Shown here: piece by piece, positions 14,120-35,615 of the stretch
How the letters are laid out: each line of letters begins with the position of its first letter
Position numbering within the stretch: position 1 is the stretch's first letter
Sequence record: OR352953.1
Length of the DNA stretch: 64,000 bases
Strand: one strand, 5' to 3'
Source of the DNA: Escherichia phage AV123
The notes under the pieces: generated by a model
Told to the model about the DNA's origin: nothing
Database searches by the model: none
What the model saw: the letters and a program-made list of their open reading frames with translations, nothing else
Program-made: the position numbers and the translations under genes

Positions 14120-15094
14120 TTAAAGACTTTCAATAACTTGACGACGCAGTTCATTGGCATCTGCAAGATTATAATTAAGACGAACGTGTTCTGCAAGCAT
14201 CATACCACGATCTTCTGTGTATCTAGGGTTCCTCATTAGCTTGACAACTTCATAATGCCAAGATGCTTTAGAATCTGCATAGATAACAGCCTTTGCATCT
14301 ACCGGATTGAAGTACGGCAGCACAGGAGAACAGATAATAGGAAGACCCTTTGCACCTGCTTCCAAAATCTTCAAATTGCTTTTACAGTTGTTGAAGTCAT
14401 TATCTACCAGGGGAGCAATTGCAATACTGTGACCGTCATACACAGACATATACTCACCTAAATTTTTAATAGCTGGTTTATACTGTGCATTTGGAATTTT
14501 ACGTTTTATTTTAACCCACTCCGCAGTAGTTAGATACTGACTGTTATTTCCAACAGGTGCAGAAGGATACACTTCATACCCTGCAATTGTCAATAGTGTA
14601 TCATCAAATGTATTAGCTACAAGAGATAAATCAGGTTCGTGGCTTGCTCCTCCAGCCCAGATAATAGGCGTGTCAGAATTACGGTCTTTTGTCAAAGTAA
14701 ATTGACCTTCGTCGTAAGGTAGTGCGTTTCTAATAACGACAACATTACGATTTAAATGACGAATTTTGTAAGCTAGGTATTCTGTTGTTACAGTAACAAC
14801 ATCTGCTAACTTGACCATCTCTACAATAGTCTTTGAGTGATTAGTAAATACGCCAGCCATATAATGTTCAGGATTAAGTGAATAAAAATCATCTAAATCA
14901 ACAATAATCTTAACACCTTGTGCCTTCAGGCGTTTAACCTCGTCTGCTCCACGAGAATACACTCTATTAAAAACTAAAACGTCTTTCTTAGGTTTAAACG
15001 TATTTCCAGCAAATGGCATTACAATACGATGGTAATCACAACCACTGCCTAACTTATTATCACACTTAAGTACAGGAGTATTAGGATTTACCAT
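14120..15094 (-). CDS. Glycosyltransferase (GT-B fold), tandem paralog
   Basis: KILEAGAKGLPIICSP and YDGHSIAIAPLVDNDFNNCKSN parallel the upstream gene; start set at internal ATG with GAGGAGG RBS. Confidence 0.6.
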   Translation of the reverse strand: MVNPNTPVLKCDNKLGSGCDYHRIVMPFAGNTFKPKKDVLVFNRVYSRGADEVKRLKAQGVKIIVDLDDFYSLNPEHYMAGVFTNHSKTIVEMVKLADVVTVTTEYLAYKIRHLNRNVVVIRNALPYDEGQFTLTKDRNSDTPIIWAGGASHEPDLSLVANTFDDTLLTIAGYEVYPSAPVGNNSQYLTTAEWVKIKRKIPNAQYKPAIKNLGEYMSVYDGHSIAIAPLVDNDFNNCKSNLKILEAGAKGLPIICSPVLPYFNPVDAKAVIYADSKASWHYEVVKLMRNPRYTEDRGMMLAEHVRLNYNLADANELRRQVIESL

Positions 15095-15767
15095 ATTTTT
15101 GAGCCTCCTCATAAGAGATAAAAGTTTTACCATTGCGAAGATCCTCCAGTGATTGTTTATATTGTTCCCAGTTTACACCAATCCCCTGTTCTTTCTCTTC
15201 TTTTGACAGATTCGCAAAAGGTAAAGGATTGTCTCCAAATACATCATCAGGATGGATAAACGCCATAATTCGAATAGGACATGGCACGCCTTGAATACCT
15301 CGGTTCAAACCTGCCAGTGGAACGCGATGAATCCACTCTGCATCTTCATATCCATAACCGTGGGTGTATGAGCGGAAATAGCCAGCTTTCTCAATAACTG
15401 CACGGGAATACATACCAAACTGGCACATACCTAGTTCCCAAATAACCACTTCCCCTTCAATACCTTTTACTTTATCTTTAAAGTATTCAGGCATACCAAA
15501 GAAATCCCAACCATTTTCCTTCGCCTGTTTTACAAAATATGTTTCCCAACCTTGAACAACAGGATAGCAATCATCATCAAAAATAAACCAGTAATCATAC
15601 CCTTCATCATAAAACTTTTTCATCAGTTCATTACGAGCATATGCAACACCTTTTCGTTCCCGATCATACTGTACAACAAAAGTAGCATTAGGATCAGTCA
15701 CAAGATAATCTTTAAGAGGACGCTTACCTACAGTAATAACACCAACACCAATTTTTGTATTTTCCAA
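15081..15767 (-). CDS. Putative GT-A-like glycosyltransferase
   Basis: TTG start after AAGGAG; WFIFDDDCYP DxD-type motif. Confidence 0.45.
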   Translation of the reverse strand: MENTKIGVGVITVGKRPLKDYLVTDPNATFVVQYDRERKGVAYARNELMKKFYDEGYDYWFIFDDDCYPVVQGWETYFVKQAKENGWDFFGMPEYFKDKVKGIEGEVVIWELGMCQFGMYSRAVIEKAGYFRSYTHGYGYEDAEWIHRVPLAGLNRGIQGVPCPIRIMAFIHPDDVFGDNPLPFANLSKEEKEQGIGVNWEQYKQSLEDLRNGKTFISYEEAQKYGKS

Positions 15768-15776
15768 AATAACTCC

Positions 15777-16340
15777 TTAAATAATTTTATTCATGTCTTG
15801 ACAATGTAAAAGGTGTGAAATAGCTTTTCTAGGATCATCATTACCTAAACGGTATGTGTGAAATAAGTATAACCCACGTAGTAAACCTAGCCTTTTATTG
15901 TTAGCGTGTAATGCTTTAGAGAAAATTATATCAAACTGTATTGACCTTTCCTCAAAAGGGATTTCATTCCACAGACTCTTACGAAAGAGAAGAAAGAATC
16001 CTGCTAAGATAGCATCTGTAGGTACTTCCTCTATTGAGTTTCCCCATTCTAGATGTGCTCTTTTTGCAATCTCAATGTGGTGTAATATATTCGGATCTTC
16101 ACTTCTTTCATTATTAAATAATTGATATGTTGATCCCAATCTGTTACAAGATGCACCAAGAACATCAAAATCAGGATTTGAACGGACAATTGATTCCAGC
16201 CAAGCAGGTTGTTCTGGAAGAAGAAACATTGTATCAATGTCTCTTAGGCAAATCCAACTATCTTCTGGTAAGACACTTATTGTGTCATTGATACCTTTTC
16301 CAATATCTCCAGAAAGATAGGGAGTTATGTGAAATATCAT
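15777..16340 (-). CDS. Putative nucleotide-sugar glycosyltransferase-like protein
   Basis: GGAGGGAG RBS; LRDIDTMF DxD-like motif. Confidence 0.4.
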   Translation of the reverse strand: MIFHITPYLSGDIGKGINDTISVLPEDSWICLRDIDTMFLLPEQPAWLESIVRSNPDFDVLGASCNRLGSTYQLFNNERSEDPNILHHIEIAKRAHLEWGNSIEEVPTDAILAGFFLLFRKSLWNEIPFEERSIQFDIIFSKALHANNKRLGLLRGLYLFHTYRLGNDDPRKAISHLLHCQDMNKII

Positions 16341-16800: not shown

Positions 16801-17078
16801 CAGTGTAACACTCCCAGTATATTGCTTTGTGACATAACCATAGAACATTCAACATTATCGTGACTACGTGAAAAACGTTCCCAAACCTCTTCATCGACTC
16901 GTAAAGCTATACAAGGATAGACGTTATCATTGATCATTTCAATTGAATAAACATCCATATTGTCTTCGTCTTCGATGAACATCATTGCAAACTGTTCTAA
17001 ATGTTTCCTAATGTAATGTACATCCTCTTCTGTAAGACCAATAACAAGATAACTTGCAACGATAACGCCATCTTTCAT
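16800..17078 (-). CDS. Hypothetical protein
   Basis: ORF in operon. Confidence 0.45.
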   Translation of the reverse strand: MKDGVIVASYLVIGLTEEDVHYIRKHLEQFAMMFIEDEDNMDVYSIEMINDNVYPCIALRVDEEVWERFSRSHDNVECSMVMSQSNILGVLH

Positions 17079-17088
17079 CTATATCTCC

Positions 17089-17598
17089 TTAGCGATAAAA
17101 TTGATGTTCTTTGTAGCGGTACACTAGAACCATATCTTTTTCCCAGTGTGCTCTTATTGTAGATTTTTTAAAGTATAATGCTCCTTTTGTAATATCTAAT
17201 GCAATTCGTAATTCTGGAAAATGCGTATCGAGATAAAGTAGACGTTCTGCTATAGCCTTAGCTTCCTTCCACTTATCACGTTCCATAACGTTGAATGTCT
17301 TTGTGTAAGAGAATTGTCCTTTTTGAAACAAAACTTCTTTTATAGTATCAGGGAAATATGAATCTCTAGCCCTATTCAATACTACATTACCAACAGCAGA
17401 CATACCGCGCTTTCCTTGATTACGACTTTCTGCATAGATTGCACAAGCTAATAGATTTTCTTTACTATCACGCTTTGTACACTTGTGAACTACTTTAGCA
17501 GTTTTTACGTTTGCAGCTTCGGCTTGCGCCACAACAGGTGTAAATGTAAAAGCAGTTAAGGATAGTAACGCAATTGCGACAAAGGTTTTTATTGACAA
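17089..17598 (-). CDS. Secreted cell-wall hydrolase (SleB / Hydrolase_2-like), candidate endolysin
   Basis: TTG start after AGGAGG; N-terminal signal peptide ending AQAEA; AVGNVVLNRARDSYFPDTIKEVLFQKGQFSY resembles the SleB-type core. Confidence 0.6.
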   Translation of the reverse strand: MSIKTFVAIALLSLTAFTFTPVVAQAEAANVKTAKVVHKCTKRDSKENLLACAIYAESRNQGKRGMSAVGNVVLNRARDSYFPDTIKEVLFQKGQFSYTKTFNVMERDKWKEAKAIAERLLYLDTHFPELRIALDITKGALYFKKSTIRAHWEKDMVLVYRYKEHQFYR

Positions 17599-17660
17599 AC
17601 TTGCCTCCTATTTTGTTAAACGAACTTTTATTGTAACACAGAAGAGGCTGTTTTGCAAGT

Positions 17661-17680
17661 GGAGGGGGATAACCCCCCTC
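17661..17680 (-). terminator. Hairpin terminator
   Basis: GGAGGGGGATAACCCCCCTC. Confidence 0.5.
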
Positions 17681-17690
17681 TTACATTCTG

Positions 17691-18293
17691 TTAGATACTG
17701 TAAACCTTCGTATGAGTTACTACACCATCTTCTACAAAATCAATACGTTCTTGATCCGTAACTAGTGCAGACAATACTTTAAATTTAATTGTTACACGTT
17801 CAAAAGCTGGTTGACCATCTTTAAGATAATTATGTTCAGTTGTTACTGTCTTGTTTACAAAATCAACTTTTGCTTTACCGTTTTCGCGCAAGTGGAATGT
17901 TTTTCCTGCTTTATACACAATTTCAACATTACCTTCGAGAGTAATTCCTTCAAAAAGTTCACCCTCTTCTTCATTTTCTTCATTTTTGAACAGACGACGA
18001 AACTCTTCCATATCAAGATAAACAACATCTTCAGAATAACTATCAGTAAGGTATGTCTTACCATCCATTAACCCGAAATATTGCCAGATTGCAGAATAAA
18101 CATCACTAGTTGATCCAAGGGTTTCTCTGAGTTTAGTTCCACGGATTACTTCATAAACTTCAAAATTGAAACCAGACTGCAAAGCATTAAACAGTACATC
18201 ACTAACTTCTAAAGCATAATCTTCATTGTTGTCAATATCCACAAGAAAATTACCGCTGCGAATAAGTTTTTGACCTTCTAAAGTAATACCCAT
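17691..18293 (-). CDS. Hypothetical protein
   Basis: GAGGAGAA RBS; acidic 200-aa product. Confidence 0.5.
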   Translation of the reverse strand: MGITLEGQKLIRSGNFLVDIDNNEDYALEVSDVLFNALQSGFNFEVYEVIRGTKLRETLGSTSDVYSAIWQYFGLMDGKTYLTDSYSEDVVYLDMEEFRRLFKNEENEEEGELFEGITLEGNVEIVYKAGKTFHLRENGKAKVDFVNKTVTTEHNYLKDGQPAFERVTIKFKVLSALVTDQERIDFVEDGVVTHTKVYSI

Positions 18294-18322
18294 TGTTTTC
18301 TCCTCTTCTATTTAAAATATGC

Positions 18323-18338
18323 GCCCCGAAGGGCGCTA
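18323..18338 (-). terminator. Hairpin terminator
   Basis: GCGCCCCGAAGGGCGC. Confidence 0.5.
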
Positions 18339-18345
18339 TGATTTA

Positions 18346-18942
18346 TTACTCGAACCAATCGTCGCCAGCGCCAAACGCTTTAACTACATCATAAATGTCA
18401 AGTCCAGCTTTACCTACACCATATGCTTTCAGTTTCCATTCGCTATCTTCCCGCACCAGGGAGGCAACGTGGCAAATGGTATTACCTGCAAGTTCTGGAG
18501 CCAAGAAGTCAAAATCCAGCAGTTCAACGTTACGTTCATCATCGAAGATTTTAAGGAAACCTTCGGTAGCGTGACCAAGGCGTTTCTTACCCGTTTCGTC
18601 ATCAATAGTGATTACGAATGCAATTTCCTGTGCTTCAGCAGAGATATTATCCAGTGTAACATCAATCTGCTCCATTTGTCCTACACCGTCACGAACATCT
18701 TCACCTGCAAAAGTAGAACGTTCAGGATCAAATTTCTGTGCGTAGCATACCAGGTGGCGAGGAGACAACAGTTCCGGCAGACCAGATGCATTGTGTCGGC
18801 AAATCAGAGCACTAACATCCAGATCCAGTTTTTCGTTAGATTTCCAAGAGAATTCCAGACGAATGCGTTTCAGTGCTGGTGCAATCTTTTTCAGAGAAAC
18901 TTTTTCGCTAGAACCTTTTTTCAGGGAAATTTTCTGAGTCAT
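18346..18942 (-). CDS. TerD-family protein
   Basis: N-terminal ISLKKGSSEKVSLKK and acidic GEDVRDGVGQME region resemble TerD signatures; about 198 aa. Confidence 0.65.
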   Translation of the reverse strand: MTQKISLKKGSSEKVSLKKIAPALKRIRLEFSWKSNEKLDLDVSALICRHNASGLPELLSPRHLVCYAQKFDPERSTFAGEDVRDGVGQMEQIDVTLDNISAEAQEIAFVITIDDETGKKRLGHATEGFLKIFDDERNVELLDFDFLAPELAGNTICHVASLVREDSEWKLKAYGVGKAGLDIYDVVKAFGAGDDWFE

Positions 18943-19014
18943 AATTTATTATCTCCTTTGTTGTTAATTTACGTTGTCTATTTTACTAATCTTTTCTACA
19001 AAGTCAAGCGTTTT

Positions 19015-19809
19015 TTACGCTTTTGCTCCAAATTTTTTAACCCACTCGCCAAACTCTTCGGATAGCAGTTTATTGTAAAGTTCTTCGTCAGACAAGGACA
19101 AATCTGCAATACCGATAAAATCAACGTTATCGTATTCTTTTGCCAAGTCTTTCAGGAATTTAAAGTTTGCATTACCTACACCAACCATAAACCAGTAAAC
19201 AGGAGTGTTGCGGTGTTTGTTCAGCAAACTACGTACTGCTGAAGTATCCATGTTCTCCCCGTCAGTTTGGAAGAAAATCATTGCAGGAGTACGATCAACT
19301 TGTGCATCAGTATCTACAACCTGTTCTACAACAGTACGTGTAACTTCTACACGTTCTTTTTTACCAGTTAGTTTAGCAAGGAAACCCTTAGCCGGAACTT
19401 CTTCATACTCAACGACTTCGCGTGTAATATTTTTCATAGGTACACTACCGAAGTATGTATCATAGATCTCTTGCATTACTGGAGCATAAGCTGTACCACC
19501 ATTGATGCAAACATTAGACATACAAGAGCCGACATAATCATCATATACATCAGCCGTTGCAGGAGGCAGTTCAAAAGAAGAACTATTGAAAGCCCACATG
19601 TCAATCTGTGCATTATCATCAAACTTCATACCAAACGGCAGCAGCTTACCTACAAAATCACTGACAGTGCCATCACGATACAGCTCACACATACTACCCG
19701 AAATATCTAAGGCGCTACCTACACGAAGAACAACATCGTTAATCTTTTTCTTACGCAGGGATACAGTAAGAGTTTCTTGACGTTTTTTAAGACTGATTTT
19801 ATTGGACAT
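19015..19809 (-). CDS. vWA-domain protein (TerY-like)
   Basis: MIDAS motif DISGSM after a hydrophobic strand; TerD-like ISLKK N-terminus. Confidence 0.6.
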   Translation of the reverse strand: MSNKISLKKRQETLTVSLRKKKINDVVLRVGSALDISGSMCELYRDGTVSDFVGKLLPFGMKFDDNAQIDMWAFNSSSFELPPATADVYDDYVGSCMSNVCINGGTAYAPVMQEIYDTYFGSVPMKNITREVVEYEEVPAKGFLAKLTGKKERVEVTRTVVEQVVDTDAQVDRTPAMIFFQTDGENMDTSAVRSLLNKHRNTPVYWFMVGVGNANFKFLKDLAKEYDNVDFIGIADLSLSDEELYNKLLSEEFGEWVKKFGAKA

Positions 19810-19810
19810 A

Positions 19811-20080
19811 TTATTTCTCCTTTCTGACTGTAATGTTAGTAACTTCTAAATCCACTTCTACCACTTCTGTATCATATAAAATACAGTTAAGTTGACCTCT
19901 TTGTGAACCGTTCAGACACATTGCTTGGTTTGTATTAACCTTAATAAACACTAAGTTTCTGAACGTATCTAAACCAGCATCTTGATAGGCAACATAATAT
20001 ACGAATGTATCACCTGTGTCAAGTTCTCCAAAACATTTAGGTTCATCTGATTTGTCGTCTTTGATATTAAATTTAAGCAC
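19811..20080 (-). CDS. Hypothetical protein
   Basis: GTG start after AAGGAGA. Confidence 0.45.
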   Translation of the reverse strand: MLKFNIKDDKSDEPKCFGELDTGDTFVYYVAYQDAGLDTFRNLVFIKVNTNQAMCLNGSQRGQLNCILYDTEVVEVDLEVTNITVRKEK

Positions 20081-20636
20081 TGTCTTCTCCTTTACCTGCT
20101 CTCAAGCCTAAATAGAAAGCCTCTCTGGTGATCTTTTGCAACTCGTTTAAAGAGATAGTTACAACTAAATCATCTTCAATTTCTAGCTTTGAGTCTTCTT
20201 CTGTCTCAATGCAAGTATTATGCACTTTGTGGTAAGGATTGTCAACACGTTTAAATTTATTATTTTCAGTGCTGAAGAAGCAATCTGGATCTTCTTCCCC
20301 ATCACCCCAACCCTGGTTAGGATCTTCTTCAGATCTTTCTGTTGGGATCTCGCCTGTAAAGTGCTCTTCTAATACCAGAGCAATCCCATCTCCAAGATCG
20401 GAAGAGAACATCAAATTACAAACTTCTTCCCAAGGCATAGACCACTTAAATCTTTTACGATTGCCATGTTTATCTTCTTCGTTAGAGAAAACACTACCAT
20501 AGCTATCATAATTCCCATACATCTCTTCGACAACCTTACCACCTTTCAAAAGAAATAGGTAGCAAGGAGAGCCATCGAAAGAGGTAGAAAGAGCAGCATT
20601 ACCAGACTCTTTGCACAAGAAACTAAAACACCCCAT
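20073..20636 (-). CDS. Hypothetical acidic protein
   Basis: Start overlaps upstream stop (TAATG). Confidence 0.45.
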   Translation of the reverse strand: MGCFSFLCKESGNAALSTSFDGSPCYLFLLKGGKVVEEMYGNYDSYGSVFSNEEDKHGNRKRFKWSMPWEEVCNLMFSSDLGDGIALVLEEHFTGEIPTERSEEDPNQGWGDGEEDPDCFFSTENNKFKRVDNPYHKVHNTCIETEEDSKLEIEDDLVVTISLNELQKITREAFYLGLRAGKGEDSA

Positions 20637-20836
20637 TATACACCAGCCTTAAGATCAATTAAAGCCAAAGTTGTTTCAGAGTGTGTTTGCTCGTCTACAG
20701 GTGCAGTCATATGATAATACAAAAAATCTTCGGCATCATACCAATCTGATTCTTGACCTTGTTTCCAACCATCAATGAAAGCATCTTCCATAATGGTTTG
20801 CAATTCTTCACGAGTTAAGTGAATATCTTTACTCAT
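20636..20836 (-). CDS. Hypothetical protein
   Basis: Coupled ORF. Confidence 0.4.
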   Translation of the reverse strand: MSKDIHLTREELQTIMEDAFIDGWKQGQESDWYDAEDFLYYHMTAPVDEQTHSETTLALIDLKAGV

Positions 20837-21069
20837 TACACATTCTCCTCTTTTACCAATTCCATTGTTGAATTGTCAAAACCATCTTTAGAAGAATAGG
20901 TATAGACAGCACGTAGTTCTCGCAGGACAGTGAATACATTAGGATCATCTAACCAAGCATCCTGGAGGAGAACATAACGATCTTCATTGTCATACTGGAC
21001 AGCAATCATAGAGCCAGACAGTTTGTAAATTTTAATATTCATAATATATTTCTCCTTAAAGTAGACCAC
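20836..21069 (-). CDS. Hypothetical protein
   Basis: Coupled ORF. Confidence 0.4.
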   Translation of the reverse strand: MVYFKEKYIMNIKIYKLSGSMIAVQYDNEDRYVLLQDAWLDDPNVFTVLRELRAVYTYSSKDGFDNSTMELVKEENV

Positions 21070-22159
21070 GTTTAACAGTTTGAATCATACCATCTTCAAG
21101 AGATTGCACTTCTTGAATGTAATCAATACGAGCAGCACGGGCTTCAGTGTTGATTCGGTTAGTTTCTTCCAACATTTTAACTAAGTTTTCTTGATCACGA
21201 CGCAATGTTTCAATATCCAATACTTGACGATTAGCAAGTTGTGTAGCTTCAATCTGGTTTTGTGCAGCCAGATCACTACCCATTGCAATAGCAGCATTAA
21301 ATTCATTCAGTACGTTGTTCTGTGTATCGGCTGCTTTCTTCTGGCGCAGACTTTCAATATACATAGAAAAGTTTGCAGAGTAAGCAGGAATAACATTGTT
21401 CACAATATTACGGGCTGATCGCATCAAACTTGCAGATACTTTCTGCATACTTTGTACACGTGGCCCCATCTGAACGCACAGTAAGCGTAAGGCTTTCAGG
21501 TCTGCAATACGAATTTCAAGCAGATCCATAGTGTCACGAGTACGTTGACGCTCTTCTACTTCATTTTCAGGTAGTGTATTAAGGCGAACTTCTTCTTTTT
21601 CATAAGTAGCTGTTAGAAGCTCTATATCCCTGTTTAAGCTAAGAGCATATTTTGCAATAGCCTCCTCTAAACGTTGCAGATATCGTAAAGAATCTTCTTC
21701 TTTTTTCAAGTCTGTTTGGAGTGTCTTTACCAAACCCTCAATACGATTATTGATGGTGTCAAATTCTCCAAACAAATCTTCTTTCATACCTAATACTTTC
21801 TTAACTAACTTACCTAAACCTTTAGATTGTTTAATAGAATTAGGATCAAGTTGCTTTGCTTGCTTAATAAGTGCAGTTAAACGTTCACTCATTTCATCTC
21901 CCTGAGATGAACGCTGGTGTTTAAGCACTTCAGCATTAAGGTTACGAAGAGTAAGTCCTGCATCAGCACCAACTTGTTCAATCTCTTCACGAGACATTGG
22001 AGGCAGCATTTGTACAGGTCGTGCAACAGCAGGGGCATATACAGGACTTGCATCCATAGCACTTGGAGCAAACAAAGACTTACTTTTTTCTGTTGTTGCC
22101 GTGAATACACTCATTTCAGACGGTTTGCTTTTTACGGCACTGATAAAAGGACTGGACAT
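21056..22159 (-). CDS. Coiled-coil protein, possibly TelA-like
   Basis: 367 aa, extended heptad-rich helical regions; size and context within Ter-type cluster fit TelA/KlaB; no diagnostic motif seen. Confidence 0.4.
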   Translation of the reverse strand: MSSPFISAVKSKPSEMSVFTATTEKSKSLFAPSAMDASPVYAPAVARPVQMLPPMSREEIEQVGADAGLTLRNLNAEVLKHQRSSQGDEMSERLTALIKQAKQLDPNSIKQSKGLGKLVKKVLGMKEDLFGEFDTINNRIEGLVKTLQTDLKKEEDSLRYLQRLEEAIAKYALSLNRDIELLTATYEKEEVRLNTLPENEVEERQRTRDTMDLLEIRIADLKALRLLCVQMGPRVQSMQKVSASLMRSARNIVNNVIPAYSANFSMYIESLRQKKAADTQNNVLNEFNAAIAMGSDLAAQNQIEATQLANRQVLDIETLRRDQENLVKMLEETNRINTEARAARIDYIQEVQSLEDGMIQTVKRGLL

Positions 22160-22227
22160 TCAATTTCCTCCATATTCTTTAGTAGATGGTGATACCTCTG
22201 TACCACCATCATAACACAAATTAAGTA

Positions 22228-23079
22228 TTAAACAAACATATCTAAATAATTTGTAGTAATAAATGCTCCATCTGCTTCCAGATTAACATAACCAGTAGCA
22301 TTAGTGGTTAAGAAATCCAGATCGAAGGACTCTTTAACACCCCGTACCTCAACACGAGAGATATCGAATACAGGTAGTGTAACAGCCTCTTCGTGCAATA
22401 CCGTACCTTTGTAGGTTGCCTTAATGATAAACTTGATATTACCCGTTCCAGCATCATACAAAACACTTTCAAACCCTTTGAGAGTATATTTATCACCAGA
22501 AGTGAAGTGCAAAGTTGCTTTGTTTACAGTACGTTTTTTACGAGGAGTTCCTTTCACACGTTTATGATCACTACGTTTTTTGTACTTAGGAATGAATACA
22601 AACGATACATTCTGAAGAAAGGTATCAACATCAAGGATTTTAATATCCTCTGTTGCAGCAAATTTTGAAGTCGTTGCATCAAAATGCTTTTCCCTGCGAT
22701 CATACATAAAGATATCAAACCGATCTTCTAAATCAAACAAATTATGTATTTTAATTTCAGAATGCTTGCGCATTGCAGCAACCTTGAACTCTTCAAAACG
22801 TGGGTGTTCTACAAGTTCTTCAAGTTTTACACCAAAGACAGTATATTGCTTCGGAGTTTTTTCTGGTGTTGGCATTACAGAAGCATAATCCCCGATTGCG
22901 CTCTTAAAGCAAAATTGTTCTTGACCTGTATTTTTACCAACGAATTTACAGTATTCATCATTGTGCATACTTTCCTTAGTAGTACCAACAAACTCAAAAC
23001 CATCTTTATTCTTCTCAAGAATTTCTTGATTAAAGATCCAACCTTCCAGGTGATATACTTTACCAACTTCTAGTTTCAT
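22228..23079 (-). CDS. Hypothetical protein
   Basis: AAGGAG RBS. Confidence 0.5.
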   Translation of the reverse strand: MKLEVGKVYHLEGWIFNQEILEKNKDGFEFVGTTKESMHNDEYCKFVGKNTGQEQFCFKSAIGDYASVMPTPEKTPKQYTVFGVKLEELVEHPRFEEFKVAAMRKHSEIKIHNLFDLEDRFDIFMYDRREKHFDATTSKFAATEDIKILDVDTFLQNVSFVFIPKYKKRSDHKRVKGTPRKKRTVNKATLHFTSGDKYTLKGFESVLYDAGTGNIKFIIKATYKGTVLHEEAVTLPVFDISRVEVRGVKESFDLDFLTTNATGYVNLEADGAFITTNYLDMFV

Positions 23080-23114
23080 CTGTTTCTCCTTCTTATTTAA
23101 TCTGTATTAAATTA

Positions 23115-23720
23115 TTAACGACGACGTGAGCTACTAAAACTACGTTTCGACGAAGAATAACTTTTCGAAGACTTACTATAAGAGCTAATAGGACTTGAGT
23201 AAGACTTACGAGCAGAGTAATCACTATTCACTTTTGTTGTTGACGGGCGTGAATACGTTTGTACACTTTGCTGCTTAATTGTGTTTTGTTTAGTGGTTGT
23301 ATATGTATTCCCTTGTTTATCATAAAAACGATGCTTTTGTGTTGTATATGCTTTACTATTAGTTGTAGGAGCAGCGTTGTTATTGATAATTGTTGTATTG
23401 CTACCGCCATCTCTATAACCACCACCGCCACTATTACCACTCAACATATGACCAAGAAGCATACCTGTAGCAAACTCACCTACACCAGAAGAACCACTGC
23501 CGCCTCCTTGCACAACAACTGTTGAAGGTTGTGCAGGTGCTGCTTGAACAACTTGAGGTGCAGGCTGATTTACATATTGTTCATCTACCATCTGATTTGG
23601 TGTTTGTTGGTAACGTTGATTTTGTACATTTTCAGAATCATCACAACCTACCAGCAATGCACTACCTAAAACAACTGCAACAATAAAAGATTTAATGTTT
23701 TTCATTTGTAACCCTCTCAT
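23115..23720 (-). CDS. Putative lipoprotein with low-complexity Q-, G- and S/Y-rich regions
   Basis: Signal peptide with lipobox LVGC; C-terminal YSSPISSYSKSSKSYSSSKRSFSSSRRR. Confidence 0.55.
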   Translation of the reverse strand: MRGLQMKNIKSFIVAVVLGSALLVGCDDSENVQNQRYQQTPNQMVDEQYVNQPAPQVVQAAPAQPSTVVVQGGGSGSSGVGEFATGMLLGHMLSGNSGGGGYRDGGSNTTIINNNAAPTTNSKAYTTQKHRFYDKQGNTYTTTKQNTIKQQSVQTYSRPSTTKVNSDYSARKSYSSPISSYSKSSKSYSSSKRSFSSSRRR

Positions 23721-23898
23721 TTAAAGTCTCAACACAATTTTTAAAATCCCTAGAGAAACAATACATCTGTTCTCCGTTCCTGTTGATAGTAATTGTATGG
23801 TTATCAATGTATGTTGTCAAGATAAAAATCAAACAAAATAACCCTAAAGCAAAACAAATATTTTCAAACAGAATCCAAAGAACACGTAAAACTACCAT
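23692..23898 (-). CDS. Small hydrophobic protein (tentative)
   Basis: GAGGTGA RBS; fills otherwise empty gap upstream of lipoprotein gene. Confidence 0.3.
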   Translation of the reverse strand: MVVLRVLWILFENICFALGLFCLIFILTTYIDNHTITINRNGEQMYCFSRDFKNCVETLNERVTNEKH

Positions 23899-23937
23899 CA
23901 GATCACCTCAACAAAGCCCCCGAAGGGGCTTAATGAA

Positions 23938-24915
23938 TTAAGCAACAGTCTGGTCTTCTTTTTCAGGGAAGATTAAACTTGCAATAACACCCAACCCAAG
24001 AGTACCTAACACAATATACATACTGATCGTCGGATCAATGTGTGCTGGCAGGAAACTCATTTTTGCGTGCAGAGTTTCTGCAAACGGGTGATACATCAGT
24101 TTTACACCCACAAATACCAGGACTACGATAACTGCTTTCTCCAGATGAACCAAATACTTCAGTGCAACACTAAGAACAAAGAACAGAGCACGTAAACCTA
24201 AGATTGCACAGAGCATCGAAGAGAACACCAGTAGAGGTTCTTGTGTCACTGCAATTACTGCTGGAACAGAGTCTACTGCAAAGATTACGTCAACCATTTC
24301 CATTACAAACACACAAACCAGAGCCGGAGTTGCTACACGAACACCATTTTTGATTGTGAAGAACTTCTCACCATCCATCTGATCAGATACAGGGAACAGC
24401 TTACGAACAATGCGAGTAGCCCAGTGTTTAGAGTAATCAACTTCTGCATCATTATCTCCAGCGAATACCATTTTAGCCGCACAGAAAAGGATGACAGCAC
24501 CGAAGAAGATATTAACATACCAGCCCAAACTCAACAAGTAAGTACCTACTGCTACAAACACACCTCGGAAGACAATCGCACCTGCAATACCCCAAAGTAG
24601 AATCTTGTGCTGCAAGTGTGTGCTTTTAATACCAAAACTTGCGAAGACTGCCACAAATACTACTAAGTTATCTACAGAAAGAGATTTCTCCAACACATAC
24701 CCACTCAAAAACAAGCTCGCAAAATCAGCACCGTGTTGGAAGTATACAAAACCATAGTAGGCTAATGATACCCCAATCCAGAAAATTGACCAGCCAATTG
24801 CAGATTTAAATGAAATTTCTTTGTTTTCTCTGTGTCCAAAGAAGTCAATACAAATCGACAAGACTAAAATACCCACTAAAACAACCACATCAATAATTGG
24901 GAAACCCAGTTGCAT
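23938..24915 (-). CDS. TerC-family integral membrane protein
   Basis: Multi-pass hydrophobic profile; LEKSLSVDN matches the TerC E-x-SLS-x-DN motif. Confidence 0.75.
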   Translation of the reverse strand: MQLGFPIIDVVVLVGILVLSICIDFFGHRENKEISFKSAIGWSIFWIGVSLAYYGFVYFQHGADFASLFLSGYVLEKSLSVDNLVVFVAVFASFGIKSTHLQHKILLWGIAGAIVFRGVFVAVGTYLLSLGWYVNIFFGAVILFCAAKMVFAGDNDAEVDYSKHWATRIVRKLFPVSDQMDGEKFFTIKNGVRVATPALVCVFVMEMVDVIFAVDSVPAVIAVTQEPLLVFSSMLCAILGLRALFFVLSVALKYLVHLEKAVIVVLVFVGVKLMYHPFAETLHAKMSFLPAHIDPTISMYIVLGTLGLGVIASLIFPEKEDQTVA

Positions 24916-24933
24916 TCTTTTCTCCTCTTTAAT

Positions 24934-24952
24934 GCGGAGGACAATCCTCCGC
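24934..24952 (-). terminator. Hairpin
   Basis: GCGGAGGACAATCCTCCGC. Confidence 0.45.
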
Positions 24953-24992
24953 TCTATGTCTTATACTATAAACTGTTTTTAAAGAAAGTCAA

Positions 24993-25241
24993 CTAGTTCA
25001 GTTCTGTAATTTTAAGTTTATCTTCTTTGTTAATGACAGGGAAAGCTACAGCATCACCTACGTCATCAATAAAGCAAATAGCAATACCACCTTCCACTTT
25101 GCTAATCTGACCATTAAAGGCGTGATACGGGGCAGGAACTTGATCTCCATCTTCAAGGAGAATAGCCTCGTAAACCTTGCCGATAGTACAATCACGAGTG
25201 TTTCTAAATTTTTCAAGCACTTCAACATTTACTTTACGCAT
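24993..25241 (-). CDS. Hypothetical protein
   Basis: GAGAGGA RBS. Confidence 0.45.
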   Translation of the reverse strand: MRKVNVEVLEKFRNTRDCTIGKVYEAILLEDGDQVPAPYHAFNGQISKVEGGIAICFIDDVGDAVAFPVINKEDKLKITELN

Positions 25242-25255
25242 ATAAAAATCCTCTC

Positions 25256-25462
25256 TTATTTGTTAGATTGAAAGATACCACGAAGTACCGCAAGAATGAA
25301 CGTCACACAGACTACACTCCAAAACGTTACAGGAACATGATGCCAGTCTAAGCCGATAATGTCAATCATATAGTTGTATGCTAAAAGCAGTAGCCAACTA
25401 GGGATTAACACAATCAAAAACACAACAATAAAACAACCTAATACTGCTAAAACACCTGCCAT
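25256..25462 (-). CDS. Small membrane protein
   Basis: AAGGAG RBS; two hydrophobic helices. Confidence 0.45.
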   Translation of the reverse strand: MAGVLAVLGCFIVVFLIVLIPSWLLLLAYNYMIDIIGLDWHHVPVTFWSVVCVTFILAVLRGIFQSNK

Positions 25463-25471
25463 ACTTTCTCC

Positions 25472-26188
25472 TTATTTCAGTTTGTAAACAATTACATTTA
25501 AACCTTTGTTTACTAGAGTTTCTTCGATCATAAGTTTTACAATACTCCAAGAACCTCCAGCCAAACCACAACCAAGCATTGGTAAACCTACAATTTTACC
25601 GCCTGAAGATACAACATCGTCTCCCATACTATCTAACGCATTGTAGATAGCTTCATAATTCAGGTCACGCTTACCTTCCTCACGACGACTATAACCATAT
25701 TGTCCATATAAATTATAAATTGTCAAATTGTTTTCTGTATACTTAGTAAACGTACCTAATTTTTTATAATCACCACGTTTAGTGGCACAATCTGCTTTAA
25801 ACGCACCAGGCCACTTACTTTTAATTTTTGGTGCAATACCACTACCCATAGTGCAAAAACAGTTACAGCAGTGTGCTATAGCGTCTATATCGCCTCTCTC
25901 GGCTGCTGCTAAAAGATCACCGTATACCTCAATGATACCTGCTGGATAACTTGTTACAATTTCATCTTCCCAGTACATTTTCTCTACACCACCGATCAGT
26001 GCAAAGTTTTGTGTAATGCGATCATCAATATAGTTAAGACCTGAAACATACACAGCATATTCATCCTGTGCTGTAATACCTTGTACACGAATTCTTAAGA
26101 CACCATCTTTATCTGTTGCTACACGCCCAAAATCTTTTTCTGTAATATTGGTGATAGGATCTCCGAAAGTCATTACTTTATTAGACAT
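25472..26188 (-). CDS. Macro-domain protein (OARD1/TARG1/Poa1-like ADP-ribose processing)
   Basis: IAHCCNCFCTMGSGIA and LPMLGCGLAGGSWSIV...VIVYKL parallel the H-x-C-N...G-x-GIA and GCGLD...VYTL motifs of that macro family; start ATG overlaps upstream stop (ATGTCTAA). Confidence 0.7.
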   Translation of the reverse strand: MSNKVMTFGDPITNITEKDFGRVATDKDGVLRIRVQGITAQDEYAVYVSGLNYIDDRITQNFALIGGVEKMYWEDEIVTSYPAGIIEVYGDLLAAAERGDIDAIAHCCNCFCTMGSGIAPKIKSKWPGAFKADCATKRGDYKKLGTFTKYTENNLTIYNLYGQYGYSRREEGKRDLNYEAIYNALDSMGDDVVSSGGKIVGLPMLGCGLAGGSWSIVKLMIEETLVNKGLNVIVYKLK

Positions 26189-27038
26189 AATAATCCCCTT
26201 TAACATTAGATTTGTTGATAATGTTGCTTTCAAAAAATTGACGTAGGAAATCAAAGTTCTCTTTATATTTTTCAATGTTATTGTAGCCTTCTGCAAGGCA
26301 ACCAAAGAACAGTTGTTCTACATAATACAAAGGAAGCTGTGAAAGTGCAATTTTAAAATCAACTTCGCTTTGACTCATTAGATACTTAATAGGACGAACC
26401 AAACATTTAGCATCAGTTTCTTGCTTAATCATCTTAATAAAAGCTGCCAGGTTATTGATATAGTTGAAGTTAAGTGCAGCTTCGGTGTTGGCTTCTGTAC
26501 CTTCATACTTTGCAAAGTACAGGAAAAACGTATCGTTTTCAACACCTTCTTTGTCTAAAATTTCAATAAGTTTTTCTTCGTGCGTTCCTGTAATATTAAC
26601 ATCATCAATGAAAATCAGAGTTTTATTACCCCAGAAATCACGATTGATAGAGAAAGTGTCACCATCGATCAAAGCCTTACGATCTTCTTTGCTAAGAAAT
26701 CCATAATCATTGATATAGCTCACTTTACGATGAACGATATCCCACTCCACTGGTTTACCACCTTTGATAGAGATTAGGTAGTTGAGGTGATCTACAAAAT
26801 GTTCAGATAACACTGTAGCTGCATTTTTCACATAGTTATATGGAGATGGAATAACAACAAAACTTTCATTTACCAGTCGTTCTTCATACTTGGAAAAGAA
26901 ACTTTCAGCCAGAATGCGCCCCATTCTTTTTGCTGCCTGGTTACTACCAAACTTTAGTTTGGAATAATCTGCAATGTTAAATTTTGCTTCCTTCAGGTTA
27001 GTAAAAGTATTAGCAAAATGTTGAATTTGATTACGCAT
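26181..27038 (-). CDS. Phosphoribosyltransferase-like protein
   Basis: TLIFIDDVNITGTHEE resembles the type I PRTase PRPP-binding loop. Confidence 0.5.
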   Translation of the reverse strand: MRNQIQHFANTFTNLKEAKFNIADYSKLKFGSNQAAKRMGRILAESFFSKYEERLVNESFVVIPSPYNYVKNAATVLSEHFVDHLNYLISIKGGKPVEWDIVHRKVSYINDYGFLSKEDRKALIDGDTFSINRDFWGNKTLIFIDDVNITGTHEEKLIEILDKEGVENDTFFLYFAKYEGTEANTEAALNFNYINNLAAFIKMIKQETDAKCLVRPIKYLMSQSEVDFKIALSQLPLYYVEQLFFGCLAEGYNNIEKYKENFDFLRQFFESNIINKSNVKGDYYV

Positions 27039-27687
27039 TAATAAGTTCCTCTTTTTTAAGTTTAGCCAACAAGTCTTCTGGATTAATAATATGACAGAAC
27101 TTCATCCCTATGTCAACAGCTTTTCCATCATAAATCAAACTATCTCCAACGTGTAAAATCTCCTCTGGTGCGAGATCAAACGTCACCATTTCATCAAAAG
27201 AGAGTTTAAAAAACCTAGGATCTGGTTTACACAAGCAAAACTCGTCAGAAAAATGCATAAAGTCGAATGGTAATTTTGTTAAACCAGAATATACAGCTAA
27301 GAAACTACCTGGTACAAAATTAGTATTGCTCTTAATACTCAAAGAGTAGGTTGAACTTAGCTCTTCCAACTTCTTGCAAAGTTCAGGATTCAATGTTGGA
27401 GGATGTTTTATAAACATTGCCAAACAATCTCTTTTTAACCCATCCACTTTATCAAGATCAATGTTCAAACGAGTAGAAAGTGTTACCCAAGCATCCTTAG
27501 ACGTTCCACAAATGCCTTTTTCTGCTTTTAAATCCAAGAGAGTTTTTACCTCTTTATATACGGTAGCTGCTTCTGCCTCAGAACAAGAGGCATACTCGGC
27601 AATAACCTTGTTACGCTCTTCTGCATACAAAGGGTTAGCAGTAATAAGAGTATTCCATACATCAAAAGAAATATGCTTAACAGTCAT
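27031..27687 (-). CDS. HAD-superfamily hydrolase-like protein
   Basis: ISFDVWNTLI (motif I-like) and HVGDSLIYD (motif IV-like); start set at MTVKH after GGAGG. Confidence 0.5.
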   Translation of the reverse strand: MTVKHISFDVWNTLITANPLYAEERNKVIAEYASCSEAEAATVYKEVKTLLDLKAEKGICGTSKDAWVTLSTRLNIDLDKVDGLKRDCLAMFIKHPPTLNPELCKKLEELSSTYSLSIKSNTNFVPGSFLAVYSGLTKLPFDFMHFSDEFCLCKPDPRFFKLSFDEMVTFDLAPEEILHVGDSLIYDGKAVDIGMKFCHIINPEDLLAKLKKEELINA

Positions 27688-27689
27688 TT

Positions 27690-27845
27690 TTAATCCTCCG
27701 TCCAAAAGAATATCATCTGCTTAATTTTATTGATTTCTTGATGTAGTAACTTTCCAGCATGTGATTGATCTTTAATATTGACAGCAAGAATTTCAAGTTC
27801 CGTTAGTTTTTCTTGGATAGCTTTATATTCATCATCTGTAAGCAT
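27690..27845 (-). CDS. Small ORF (51 aa), not in track
   Basis: AAAGGGGAAG RBS before ATG at 27845; stop abuts HAD RBS. Confidence 0.3.
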   Translation of the reverse strand: MLTDDEYKAIQEKLTELEILAVNIKDQSHAGKLLHQEINKIKQMIFFWTED

Positions 27846-27856
27846 TTTCTTCCCCT

Positions 27857-28048
27857 TTAGAATGGTAATCTTTGTATGTCACTTATCCCCACACCAAGAA
27901 GTCTAGCAACATCCTTATCTAAAAGCAACTCTTTTTGTTCTAAAATGTTAATCAGATCTCCTAATACTTCTTTAATGTCACGATCATTTTTAGCAACGTG
28001 ACCACCTGCTGTATCAACTTTATCTTTAAAAACAAAATAATGATCCAT
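27857..28048 (-). CDS. Hypothetical protein
   Basis: Start set at second ATG (MDHYF) with GGAGGA 5 nt upstream. Confidence 0.4.
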   Translation of the reverse strand: MDHYFVFKDKVDTAGGHVAKNDRDIKEVLGDLINILEQKELLLDKDVARLLGVGISDIQRLPF

Positions 28049-28066: not shown

Positions 28067-28089
28067 AAAGGAGGCTTTCGCCTCCTTTT
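28067..28089 (-). terminator. Hairpin terminator
   Basis: AAAGGAGGCTTTCGCCTCCTTTT. Confidence 0.6.
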
Positions 28090-35614: not shown

Positions 35615-35615
35615 T

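Follow-up and report, generated by a model that had tools for sequence, protein, structure and literature searches.

What are tellurite-resistance (Ter) genes doing in a phage of Escherichia, and where does the cluster that holds them begin and end? In the 64,000-nucleotide stretch of Escherichia phage AV123 (OR352953.1) analyzed here, hereafter the window, a sequence-only reading had placed a phage-borne Ter-type cluster at positions 17691-24915. That a phage carries it is now clear, as the window belongs to the genus Justusliebigvirus (phi92-like, Stephanstirmvirinae), with 99% identity to deposited genomes and 97.9-99.2% identity to phi92, ALITA, and Paula, all Stephanstirmvirinae. We take this subfamily to be virulent. 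The cluster lies among helicase, class III RNR, and AAA-ATPase genes, and GenBank records of the same phage group already name its genes "tellurite resistance", "TerC", or "stress protein"; Ter genes in phi92-like phages are a previously annotated and published feature. The further premise that Ter systems are bacterial does not hold, since Ter clusters of lytic and jumbo phages, including those with a phosphoribosyltransferase (PRTase) and a HAD protein, have already been described (PMC7824862, PMC8386662, PMC9796965).

This locus holds a Ter system in reduced, phage-adapted form, split into two adjacent minus-strand units. In unit 1 (27687 to 25472), the HAD, PRTase_3, and macrodomain genes form an operon with translational coupling. 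Unit 2 (24915 to 18346) begins at a conserved sigma-70-like promoter and finishes at a hairpin; its products are TerC, TelA, a single TerD, a vWA protein of the TerF type whose MIDAS site is intact, a lipoprotein, and small membrane proteins. While the cluster itself is real, both of its proposed borders move: it extends upstream to 27687, taking in the three genes of unit 1 that had been missed, and the 5′ open reading frame of the interval (17691-18293, 200 aa) falls outside, past a bidirectional terminator-like hairpin, with no Ter similarity found by Pfam profiles or sequence comparison. The features are as follows:

27031..27687, minus strand: HAD-superfamily hydrolase, subfamily IA, REG-2/dehalogenase-like (phi92 gp187 equivalent)
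26181..27038, minus strand: PRTase_3 ("ComF-like") type I phosphoribosyltransferase (phi92 gp186 equivalent; PF15610, 1.5e-41)
25472..26188, minus strand: macrodomain protein, TARG1/SCO6735/DarG type (phi92 gp185 equivalent; Pfam Macro, 3.8e-7)
25256..25462, minus strand: small protein with two predicted TM segments (gp184 equivalent; hydropathy scan)
24993..25241, minus strand: 82-aa protein, no family hit, Justusliebigvirus-specific (gp183 equivalent)
24934..24992, minus strand: sigma-70-like promoter and GC hairpin, terC leader (promoter/terminator scan and sequence)
23938..24915, minus strand: TerC, TerC/Alx family integral membrane protein (PF03741, 1.2e-38)
23692..23898, minus strand: small protein with one predicted TM segment (gp181 equivalent; hydropathy scan)
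23115..23705, minus strand: Gly- and Ser-rich lipoprotein (gp180 equivalent; lipobox in translation)
22228..23079, minus strand: 283-aa protein, function not assigned (gp179 equivalent; PHROG 27504)
21056..22159, minus strand: TelA, toxic anion resistance protein family (PF05816, 5.1e-34)
20836..21042, minus strand: small ORF (gp177 equivalent; annotated in Paula)
20636..20836, minus strand: small ORF (gp176 equivalent; 50% identical match in phAPEC8)
20073..20636, minus strand: 187-aa protein of a widespread phage family (gp175 equivalent)
19811..20080, minus strand: 89-aa protein (gp174 equivalent; two paralogues in phAPEC8)
19015..19809, minus strand: vWA-TerF-like protein (PF10138, 1.4e-38)
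18980..19007, minus strand: sigma-70-like promoter match in the vWA–terD spacer (consensus match only)
18346..18942, minus strand: TerD-domain protein, single copy (PF02342, 5.1e-28)
18321..18336, unstranded: bidirectional terminator-like GC hairpin, end of the terD unit (terminator scan)

The Pfam matches listed above bear out the TerD, vWA, TelA, and TerC families read from the translations. TerC scores 322.8 bits against TIGR03718, the TerC/Alx "metal homeostasis" model (cut-off, 246.4 bits), carries the E-K-SLS-V-DN motif and about 8 TM segments in a hydropathy scan, and shares 47% of its residues, over the whole protein, with the TerC of a ter operon on a Chimaeribacter plasmid. Its DNA matches terC in 999 of 5426 E. 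coli genomes, and among the matches listed, the underlying features were all terC and none alx. The lipoprotein was also read correctly (lipobox LLVG↓C, then DD); it has a 35% identical orthologue in phAPEC8 and no family annotation in Pfam or PHROG. Of the small membrane proteins, the gp184 equivalent is conserved in Phapecoctavirus (60% identity to its phAPEC8 orthologue), and the gp181 equivalent has a phAPEC8 orthologue and a weak, sub-threshold match to DUF6693. TelA (PHROG 5890, "tellurite resistance") is 78.5% identical to that of phAPEC8 and 21-27% identical to its closest bacterial relatives; its AF2 model is all-helical and of low confidence (pLDDT 56), too poor for a scaffold role to be assessed.

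The vWA protein, with its DISGSM motif, had been called TerY-like. The MIDAS site stands, with DISGS (DxSGS), the GGT Thr, and the TDG Asp kept in all 13 aligned phage homologues, but the TerY attribution does not: no TerY_C domain was found by Pfam and no TerY-P match by PADLOC, and the protein is of the TerF-C-terminal type. TerD matches PDB 2kxt (8.6e-15) and bacterial TerE (up to 62 bits), with a derived acidic loop, GEDVRDGVGQMEQ versus the canonical GDNxTGxGDDE. Because Stephanstirmvirinae TerD has lost three of the acidic residues found in the canonical Ca2+ loop, Ca2+ sensing by this protein is uncertain. Nor is the set "full", as had been supposed: there is a single TerD paralogue, and the phage Ter set lacks TerB, the TerZ/A/E paralogues, ATP-grasp, and HpcH lyase. 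Among the remaining proteins, those equivalent to gp183, gp179, gp177, and gp176 have no Pfam match. The first also has no phAPEC8 orthologue; the 283-aa gp179 equivalent shows no similarity to TerD, vWA, or TelA, and only its C-terminal part is common to Phapecoctavirus (partial phAPEC8 match). The gp175 equivalent, although located within the cluster, is probably not Ter-specific; its family has no recognised fold.

The terC promoter (TTGACT-16-TATAGT, 24992..24965) is followed by a GC hairpin (24952..24934). The phAPEC8 leader has the same layout with compensatory stem changes and is annotated as a "host dependent promoter", so that upstream of terC two genera keep a promoter of the form TTGAC(T/A)...TA(T/A)(A/G)(G/A)T; Rfam found no riboswitch in the AV123 leader. 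The match in the vWA–terD spacer (TTGACT-16-TAAAAT) is not conserved in position in phAPEC8, and sigma-70-like consensus matches in general are not enriched (43 found versus 38.9 expected from shuffled sequence).

In unit 1, the HAD protein matches Pfam Hydrolase (1.2e-5) and, weakly, the NCBIfam models DREG-2, CTE7, and HAD_type_II. Its motif I reads D-x-W-x-T, with W at D+2 in 18 of 19 aligned phage homologues and Y in the other, while the remaining motifs are intact; since the general-acid Asp is missing, the label "phosphatase" is not assured. The HAD stop and the PRTase start overlap by 8 nt (ATGCGTAA), as do the PRTase stop and the macrodomain start (ATGTCTAA). The PRPP loop of PRTase_3, DDVxITGTHE, is invariant across 27 homologues, and a sequence search found no solved structure for this protein. 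The macrodomain protein, with an 84-aa N-terminal extension, matches PDB 5e3b (1.2e-15) and TARG1 (3.6e-10), and reaches 49 bits against DarG models over their N-terminal macro part only. In every locus compared, 16 of 16 from distant phages and 15 of 15 from bacterial genomes, a HAD gene adjoins PRTase_3; the two are an obligate pair, and the operon as a whole is a Ter-associated "nucleoside-like metabolite" module.

The Ter module is core to the subfamily. TelA and PRTase each occur in 131 records, compared with 133 for the helicase, at subfamily-level identity, and the module evolves about as slowly as the helicase (dN versus phAPEC8: TerD, 0.133; TelA, 0.159; helicase, 0.154; NrdD, 0.142). 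It is fixed in the whole subfamily under strong purifying selection, and conservation extends to the MIDAS motif, the PRPP loop, and the nucleophile, Ser, Lys, and Asp motifs of the HAD. TerC, TerD, vWA-TerF, TelA, HAD, and PRTase_3 also co-occur in unrelated contigs of uncultured phages, with their order shuffled, and a bacterial cluster of TerD, TerY/PP2C/kinase, and P-type ATPase genes likewise holds HAD–PRTase_3.

We infer that the likeliest role of the locus is to act early, at the inner membrane, as a guard against superinfection, colicins, or the damage done by abortive infection, with a ribosylated small molecule tuning it; for this mechanism as a whole, our tentative estimate is a probability of about 0.4. 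The genes would be expressed early by host RNA polymerase, as the conserved promoter upstream of terC and the phAPEC8 annotation suggest. TerC, as a TerC/Alx-type metal or ion transporter, would sit in the inner membrane (its 8 TM segments, the 1-TM and 2-TM small proteins, and the lipoprotein all point to a membrane location), TelA and the vWA protein would form a metal-dependent layer beneath it, and TerD would sense a cation or ligand. Jointly, they would preserve the membrane and ion balance of the infected cell and fend off secondary insults from pore-forming colicins, from superinfecting phages injecting their DNA, and possibly from abortive-infection effectors that depolarise the membrane. 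PRTase_3 would join a base to PRPP, the atypical HAD would take off or transfer a phosphate, and the riboside-like product would tune or feed the Ter complex, with the macrodomain trimming an ADP-ribose-type or ribose-1''-linked derivative. The near-complete presence among records, helicase-like dN, and conserved motifs argue for functional constraint, and the shuffled-order recurrence in phage contigs together with the bacterial TerD/TerY cluster suggests that the two units are functionally linked. Bacteria deleted for terC are less resistant to Te, Zn, and Mn and give larger phage plaques (PMC12054061), and competition with superinfecting phages has been proposed as the role of jumbo-phage Ter systems (PMC7824862). 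The takeover or superinfection control suggested in the sequence-only reading agrees with that proposal. The phage set, however, is without TerB and TerZ, both of them important in bacterial Ter systems, and the functional steps are carried over from bacterial Ter systems that are themselves poorly understood.

The two units could instead be unrelated neighbors, with HAD–PRTase_3–Macro acting as an independent nucleotide/ADP-ribose counter-defence or metabolic cassette in which, for example, the macrodomain removes DarT-type or other ADP-ribosylation and PRTase/HAD makes or destroys a nucleoside. TerD and vWA genes lie near HAD–PRTase_3 in only about half of the distant phage loci; 9/16 of these loci have the pair without nearby Ter genes, as do Rhizobium, Caulobacter, and Xanthomonas phages and also rhizobial chromosomes and plasmids, where it stands among ordinary genes, so its metabolite need not act on Ter proteins. 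The macrodomain is TARG1/DarG-like, its homologue in phiPsa374 adjoins NAD-salvage-type genes, and a promoter and hairpin stand between the units. We nevertheless consider such independence somewhat less probable than the guard mechanism, given the repeated co-localisation with TerD, vWA, TelA, and TerC in unrelated phage contigs, the pair's presence within a bacterial Ter/TerY cluster, the construction of PRTase_3 by Pfam as a Ter-associated family, and the adjacency of the units in both genera of the subfamily.

Less probable still is a metal-homeostasis auxiliary module, in which TerC would be an Alx/MeeF-like Mn2+/Zn2+ exporter and TerD, vWA, and TelA metal buffers, setting cytoplasmic/periplasmic metal for phage enzymes or detoxifying a takeover surge rather than excluding competitors. 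The TerC model score, the intact MIDAS site, the P-type cation ATPase at the end of the bacterial HAD–PRTase_3/TerD cluster, and the metal-dependent nucleotide-metabolism neighbors (class III RNR) are consistent with it, as is bacterial terC, which is induced by Zn/Mn and confers Zn and Mn resistance (PMC12054061). However, it leaves the conserved link to the PRTase/HAD pair or macrodomain unexplained, the lack of the Mn riboswitch usual in the TerC/Alx family (Rfam) gives no sign of metal-responsive control, and the host already has Alx. We also know of no metal-dependent phenotype of Justusliebigvirus-type phages.

A classical "moron" conferring tellurite or xenobiotic resistance on the host, as the deposited product names imply and as the first discovery of the TelA and TerC families through tellurite resistance might suggest, is very improbable: the genes are core rather than sporadic, and the host of a phage that we take to be virulent is killed before it could profit. 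TerB and TerZ/TerA, required with TerC and TerD for E. coli resistance (PMC12054061), are missing, and the phiPsa374 authors conclude likewise for their own phage (PMC9796965). Finally, decaying or hitch-hiking genes, as the degenerate TerD loop and the HAD without Asp+2 might hint, are effectively refuted by the conservation data, with 131/133 records, dN as low as that of the replicative helicase, intact reading frames and catalytic/metal motifs, and both "defects" strictly conserved.

Among known systems, the bacterial terZABCDEF locus with its divergent biosynthetic operon (IncHI2 R478/E. coli O157/Klebsiella type) shares the related TerC (47% identity) and the same two-part plan, in which a membrane module is combined with a biosynthetic module that contains a PRTase. 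In the stretch seen of the Chimaeribacter plasmid example, however, there are at least 4 TerD paralogues and TerB, no TelA or TerF-vWA, and a PRTase of another family accompanied by ATP-grasp, StiP, and HpcH lyase, whereas the phage has one TerD, no TerB, ATP-grasp, or lyase, and a W-type HAD and macrodomain alongside its PRTase_3. The Bacteroidetes TerD–TerY/PP2C/kinase–HAD–PRTase_3–P-type ATPase cluster (Tannerella MAG) has the same HAD–PRTase_3 pair beside TerD genes (PRTase 32% identical), but the vWA proteins there are of the TerY type, carry a TerY_C domain, and are joined by a PP2C phosphatase and a kinase (the triad of the TerY-P defence system), and neither TelA nor TerC was seen in the stretch. 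The abbreviated ter clusters of Pseudomonas phage phiPsa374 (Otagovirus) and Klebsiella phage phiKp34 have TerC, TerD, TerF-vWA, and TelA in one virulent-phage block. The phiPsa374 proteins are detectable homologues (22-31% identity) with a homologous macrodomain nearby, but in that phage TerC is shorter, the canonical TerD acidic loop is better kept, and the examined region contains no HAD–PRTase_3 pair. The lytic carriers described by Iyer, Anantharaman, Krishnan, Burroughs & Aravind in 2021, e.g., Acinetobacter phage vB_AbaM_ME3 and Caulobacter jumbo phages, share TerC, TerD, TerF-type vWA, and TelA, with PRTase and HAD in fuller versions, and the same proposed role in superinfecting-phage competition (PMC7824862). 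That study mentions "certain other related smaller tailed phages" in passing, without naming phi92, rV5, or phAPEC8. Unlike those jumbo phages, the present phage is a non-jumbo myovirus of 145-150 kb that couples the macrodomain translationally to the PRTase; what is novel here is the core status of the module in the subfamily, the obligate HAD–PRTase_3 pair, the W-type HAD, and a conserved terC promoter without a riboswitch.

The TerD, vWA, TelA and TerC proteins that the sequence-only reading had named at four ORFs were each matched to the expected family in the Pfam profile search, and the lipoprotein that it had placed among them carries a visible lipobox:

18346-18942, minus strand, TerD (PF02342, 5.1e-28; PDB 2kxt, 8.6e-15)
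19015-19809, minus strand, vWA-TerF-like protein (PF10138, 1.4e-38)
21056-22159, minus strand, TelA/KlaA (PF05816, 5.1e-34)
23115-23705, minus strand, lipoprotein (lipobox LLVG/C, then Asp-Asp)
23938-24915, minus strand, TerC integral membrane protein (PF03741, 1.2e-38)

Because of these E-values and the supporting details at the same ORFs, the Ter observation is real and far beyond chance; the interpretation first put on it is right in part. TerC scored 322.8 bits against the curated NCBIfam TerC/Alx model TIGR03718 (cut-off 246.4) and shares 47% identity along its whole length with TerC of the terZABCDE operon on a Chimaeribacter plasmid (L011). The MIDAS of the vWA protein (DISGS, of the form DxSGS) and its downstream Thr and Asp are kept in 13/13 aligned phage vWA homologues. 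In TerD, the first motif, DLDxS, is retained in Stephanstirmvirinae, whereas the second loop reads GEDVRDGVGQMEQ against the canonical GDNxTGxGDDE, three Asp having become V, Q and M; this form is constant within the subfamily, and the canonical loop is retained in other phage TerDs. No PDB sequence relatives were found for TelA, the vWA protein, TerC or the phosphoribosyltransferase described below, and the AF2 model of TelA, built from 19 sequences, reached a pLDDT of only 56.

In the lipoprotein, Asp residues occupy positions +2 and +3 past the lipidated Cys, the Gly-rich and Ser-rich low-complexity tails are long, and conservation between genera is only 35%. Asp-Asp in this position is an inner-membrane retention signal in E. 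coli. The protein is a candidate inner-membrane lipoprotein, either for superinfection exclusion or unrelated to spanins. Among the remaining ORFs, gp171, gp174, gp175, gp176, gp179, gp180, gp183 and gp189 (numbered after their phi92 equivalents) were compared with TerD, vWA and TelA profiles by hhalign and rejected as cryptic Ter paralogues, all at <2% probability. The gp175 family is large and highly conserved; its AF2 model has a pLDDT of 86.5, and no structural neighbour of it was found. As a new Ter component gp175 was set aside, a distant member having been located in the replication region of a marine phage, where no Ter genes occur.

The limits first proposed for the cluster, 17691-24915, do enclose the Ter genes but take in one ORF too many at one end and miss the upstream genes, as far as 27687, at the other. 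The ORF at 17691-18293 lies past a bidirectional terminator-like hairpin, has no counterpart in phAPEC8 of the sister genus Phapecoctavirus, and shows no Ter similarity. The proper extent of the locus is 18346-27687, and the signals around and within it are as follows:

28088..28067, terminator-like hairpin after the AAA-ATPase gene
24934-24992, minus strand, sigma-70-like promoter (TTGACT-16-TATAGT) and GC hairpin in the terC leader, between gp183 and terC
18321-18336, bidirectional terminator-like hairpin closing the second unit

The first unit runs gp189, gp188, HAD, PRTase_3, Macro, a 2-TM protein and gp183, and the second terC, a 1-TM protein, the lipoprotein gene, gp179, telA, three small ORFs, gp175, gp174, vWA and terD. 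The promoter calls are consensus matches only, with a total count not above shuffled expectation; the one before terC carries weight because it is conserved upstream of terC in two genera. In phAPEC8 (L002 12552-12631) the promoter and hairpin have a matching layout, and its annotators placed a "host-dependent promoter" at this site. Promoter, GC hairpin, Shine-Dalgarno sequence and ATG follow one another in that order; the leader is ~50 nt long with a simple hairpin, and between the two phages the stem differs by compensatory changes (GCGGAGGA/TCCTCCGC here, GCGGGGA/TCCCCGC in phAPEC8). Since it has no T-run, the hairpin is not a typical terminator, and it might serve to stabilise or process the RNA.

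Upstream of terC in the direction of transcription, outside the interval first proposed, Pfam identified three enzyme genes:

27031-27687, minus strand, HAD hydrolase (Pfam HAD, 1.2e-5)
26181-27038, minus strand, PRTase_3 "ComF-like" phosphoribosyltransferase (PF15610 family match, 1.5e-41)
25472-26188, minus strand, macrodomain protein, Macro (TARG1/DarG-type matches)

The HAD stop overlaps the PRTase_3 start by 8 nt (ATGCGTAA), as the PRTase_3 stop does the Macro start (8 nt, ATGTCTAA), and the three are therefore translationally coupled. The PRPP loop of PRTase_3, DDVxITGTHE, is invariant in the homologue alignment, and the label "orotate phosphoribosyltransferase" on a gene of this operon is misleading. 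The HAD protein retains its nucleophile Asp, Ser/Thr of motif II, Lys of motif III and GDxxxD of motif IV (19 phage homologues aligned). However, the Asp+2 general acid/base of HAD phosphatases (motif I, DxDx(T/V)) is missing in 19/19: motif I is D-V-W-N-T in the window, and the D+2 residue is Trp in 18/19 and Tyr in the other. Because Asp+2 is always missing, the name "phosphatase" is an assumption. The nearest NCBIfam subfamilies, REG-2-like and type II dehalogenase, scored far under their cut-offs. Across the HAD partners of PRTase_3 in the window and in comparison loci L002-L029, loss of Asp+2 defines the clade.

Matches to PDB entries (5e3b, 1.2e-15; TARG1, 3.6e-10) place the macrodomain in the TARG1/SCO6735/DarG subgroup. 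DarG models match just the macro part, at ~1e-13 (49 bits against a cut-off of 250; positions 4-147 of the 338 in the model); the C-terminal domain of the DarG antitoxin was not matched, and no DarT partner lies nearby. The macrodomain alone could reverse DarT-like ADP-ribosylation of DNA or protein, and its weak match to DarG was the sole one among the PADLOC defence models. An N-terminal extension of 84 residues occurs in Justusliebigvirus only and is absent in Phapecoctavirus. PRTase plus HAD has been described as a "nucleoside-like metabolite" module tied to Ter systems (PMC7824862), and the HAD–PRTase_3–Macro operon belongs in one description with the Ter genes.

The region 17000-28000 of the window shares 99.2% identity with Escherichia phage ALITA and 97.9% with phi92, and ~54 deposited Justusliebigvirus genomes span >=80% of it; the matching records, all of virulent myoviruses of ~146 kb, are classified as Caudoviricetes, Stephanstirmvirinae, Justusliebigvirus. 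Four records labelled "Campylobacter phage" (MG065639, MG065645, MG065656 and MG065689; host C. jejuni) have 98% identity to the window phage over 11 kb and are probably mislabelled or contaminant genomes. Every gene from about 5 kb to 40 kb of the window is on the minus strand, including that of the helicase used here for comparison:

33878-35653, minus strand, UvrD-type helicase (591 aa, contiguous in the window)

In phi92, muut, JohannJBalmer and others this helicase is in two pieces ~1 kb apart, labelled intein-containing in JohannJBalmer, and the allele of the window phage appears to be intein-free. The Ter block is directly followed (13164-16340 and 17089-17598, minus strand) by the gene of a SleB-type cell-wall hydrolase (Hydrolase_2, 6.5e-20) and by four genes named glycosyltransferase or disaccharide synthase in relatives, in an order unchanged in phAPEC8. 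With the Ter block, these genes form an envelope-directed stretch of the genome.

At subfamily-level identity, tblastn recovered TelA and PRTase_3 from 131 records each against 133 for the helicase, so the Ter module is a core feature of Stephanstirmvirinae rather than a sporadic moron. Phage records positive for TelA number roughly 250, and those positive for PRTase_3 156. For the window against phAPEC8, dN was compared alone because dS was saturated (>1). It was 0.133 for TerD and 0.159 for TelA, beside 0.154 for the helicase and 0.142 for NrdD; TerC (0.223), vWA (0.276) and PRTase (0.299) are under moderate constraint, and HAD and Macro (~0.44-0.50) under looser constraint. On these sequence comparisons, the Ter module is functional. 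TelA has <=27% identity to bacterial TelA and TerD ~32% at most to plasmid TerDs, and at the DNA level 17-20% of terC aligns with E. coli terC, at ~69% identity, in 999 of 5426 genomes; the E. coli features listed under these matches were all terC and none alx. These low identities of TerC, TerD and TelA rule out recent capture from E. coli, and the Ter genes are long-standing phage residents.

Bacterial ter operons protect against tellurite and pore-forming colicins and inhibit phages, and terZ, terC and terD are required for all three effects. By analogy, the best-supported reading, to which we give a probability of roughly 0.4, is that the Ter block acts as an early-expressed guard of the inner membrane, with HAD–PRTase_3–Macro supplying or editing a ribosylated small molecule. 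It is favoured because of these bacterial phenotypes together with the host-type promoters, the membrane-rich gene set, the intact MIDAS and the strict conservation. The Ter genes would be switched on early from host-type promoters; TerC would be an inner-membrane channel or transporter, TelA and the vWA protein a layer beneath that membrane, and TerD a sensor. Such a guard would keep the membrane and the ion balance of the infected cell intact and shut out secondary insults, and the enzyme operon would supply or edit its ribosylated compound.

The place of the enzymes in this reading bears on the alternative that survives best, in which their operon is independent, a nucleotide or ADP-ribose counter-defence cassette; this is compatible with an inner-membrane guard, and we hold it to be possible but doubtful. 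PRTase_3 was surveyed at 16 distant loci (IMG/VR, GenBank phages and metagenome contigs) and 15 loci in bacterial genomes, and a HAD gene of the same clade lay directly upstream in 16/16 and 15/15, so that HAD–PRTase_3 is an obligate two-gene unit. Within <=10 kb of it in the 16 phage loci were TerD plus a TerF-type vWA in 7, TelA in 5 and TerC in at least 4, with varying gene orders. In L012, L013, L018, L022, L024, L026 and L027, the six families of the window locus co-localise in differing orders, and repeated co-localisation in varying order is a classic sign that genes are functionally linked. In a Tannerella MAG (L043), HAD–PRTase_3 sits between a block of TerD x3, vWA x2, TerY(+TerY_C), PP2C and kinase genes and a P-type cation ATPase. 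On the other side, the pair has no Ter neighbours in Rhizobium, Caulobacter and Xanthomonas phages and stands alone amid ordinary metabolic genes on rhizobial replicons; the metabolite unit is thus autonomous and coupled to Ter only facultatively. The rhizobial loci (L031-L042, from Rhizobium, Sinorhizobium and Ensifer, e.g. pRL10 of R. johnstonii 3841) hold a stand-alone cassette beside LysE, GntR-aminotransferase, Clp-protease-like and lactonase genes, with no Ter genes within 10 kb. In phiPsa374 (L003 1-3675), genes with the annotations ribose-phosphate pyrophosphokinase and nicotinamide phosphoribosyltransferase, a pair that resembles phage NAD+ reconstitution pathways, are found within a few kb of the Ter block and of a homologous macrodomain.

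TerC/Alx proteins export Mn. Their NCBIfam name describes them as metal-homeostasis membrane proteins, and deletion of terC lowered Zn and Mn resistance and enlarged phage plaques (PMC12054061); an auxiliary function in metal homeostasis would fit these observations. TerC/Alx proteins of TIGR03718 are termed "riboswitch-regulated", yet the window TerC, above the cut-off of that model, has a leader without a yybP-ykoY riboswitch: an Rfam search of the window at gathering thresholds matched no family, hence no such Mn2+ element precedes terC, and a Mn riboswitch was dropped as a candidate. We consider the metal reading rather unlikely.

A more specific form of the inner-membrane guard, which we regard as a long shot, is a small-molecule pathway of the phage's own, in which PRTase_3 and the Trp-type HAD would make a riboside-like compound, the coupled macrodomain would edit or erase it, and an inner-membrane complex of TerC, TelA, vWA and TerD, which repairs or seals the infected cell's membrane, would be switched by this compound. 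If true, this would be a virus-encoded signalling and membrane-repair system that beats membrane-depolarising abortive-infection effectors and blocks rival phages, and a Ter system would for the first time have a defined ligand and a defined cellular output. True tellurite resistance for the host, one of the bacterial phenotypes, is very improbable here, and the "tellurite resistance" labels on the genes of this locus are misleading. Decay of the Ter genes, in a module so constrained, is scarcely credible.

Ter genes have resisted a clear functional assignment since the 1990s, in phages as in bacteria. Anantharaman, Iyer and Aravind reportedly described Ter in 2012 as a stress-response "hub". 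The idea that Ter systems are bacterial does not hold, as Ter blocks in virulent phages had already been published (Iyer et al., PMC7824862; PMC8386662; PMC9796965), with terC/terD/terF/telA blocks described in phiKp34 (PMC8386662) and phiPsa374 (PMC9796965). Within the phi92-like group, RAST called phi92 gp172, gp173 and gp178 Ter proteins in 2015, and GenBank records already carry Ter product names; as a class the block is therefore annotated and published, and its novelty is low. Our literature search found no experimental study of the phi92-like Ter genes.

The phage block differs in composition from the known bacterial systems. The terZABCDEF operon has several TerD paralogues (TerZ, A, D, E and F) and TerB around TerC, whereas the phage has a single TerD and no TerB, which was not matched in the 20 ORFs between 17089 and 29255 (Pfam). 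The cluster is thus not the full set first supposed: ATP-grasp and the HpcH/citrate-lyase-like enzyme are also absent from the Pfam-scanned ORFs, and L011 has all of these components. The TerY-P system combines a TerY vWA with a PP2C phosphatase and a Ser/Thr kinase; in contrast, Pfam found no TerY_C, PP2C or Pkinase in the window cluster, and all three in L043. The vWA protein, once called TerY-like, is instead of the TerF-C-terminal type, without a TerY_C domain or a PADLOC TerY-P match. Compared with these systems, the phi92-like group carries a compact, strictly conserved version, with one TerD, TerC, TelA, one vWA and a three-enzyme operon; deposits of its isolates give E. coli K-12 as host, and a minimal, strictly conserved version in a K-12-infecting phage is a good place for testing Ter function.
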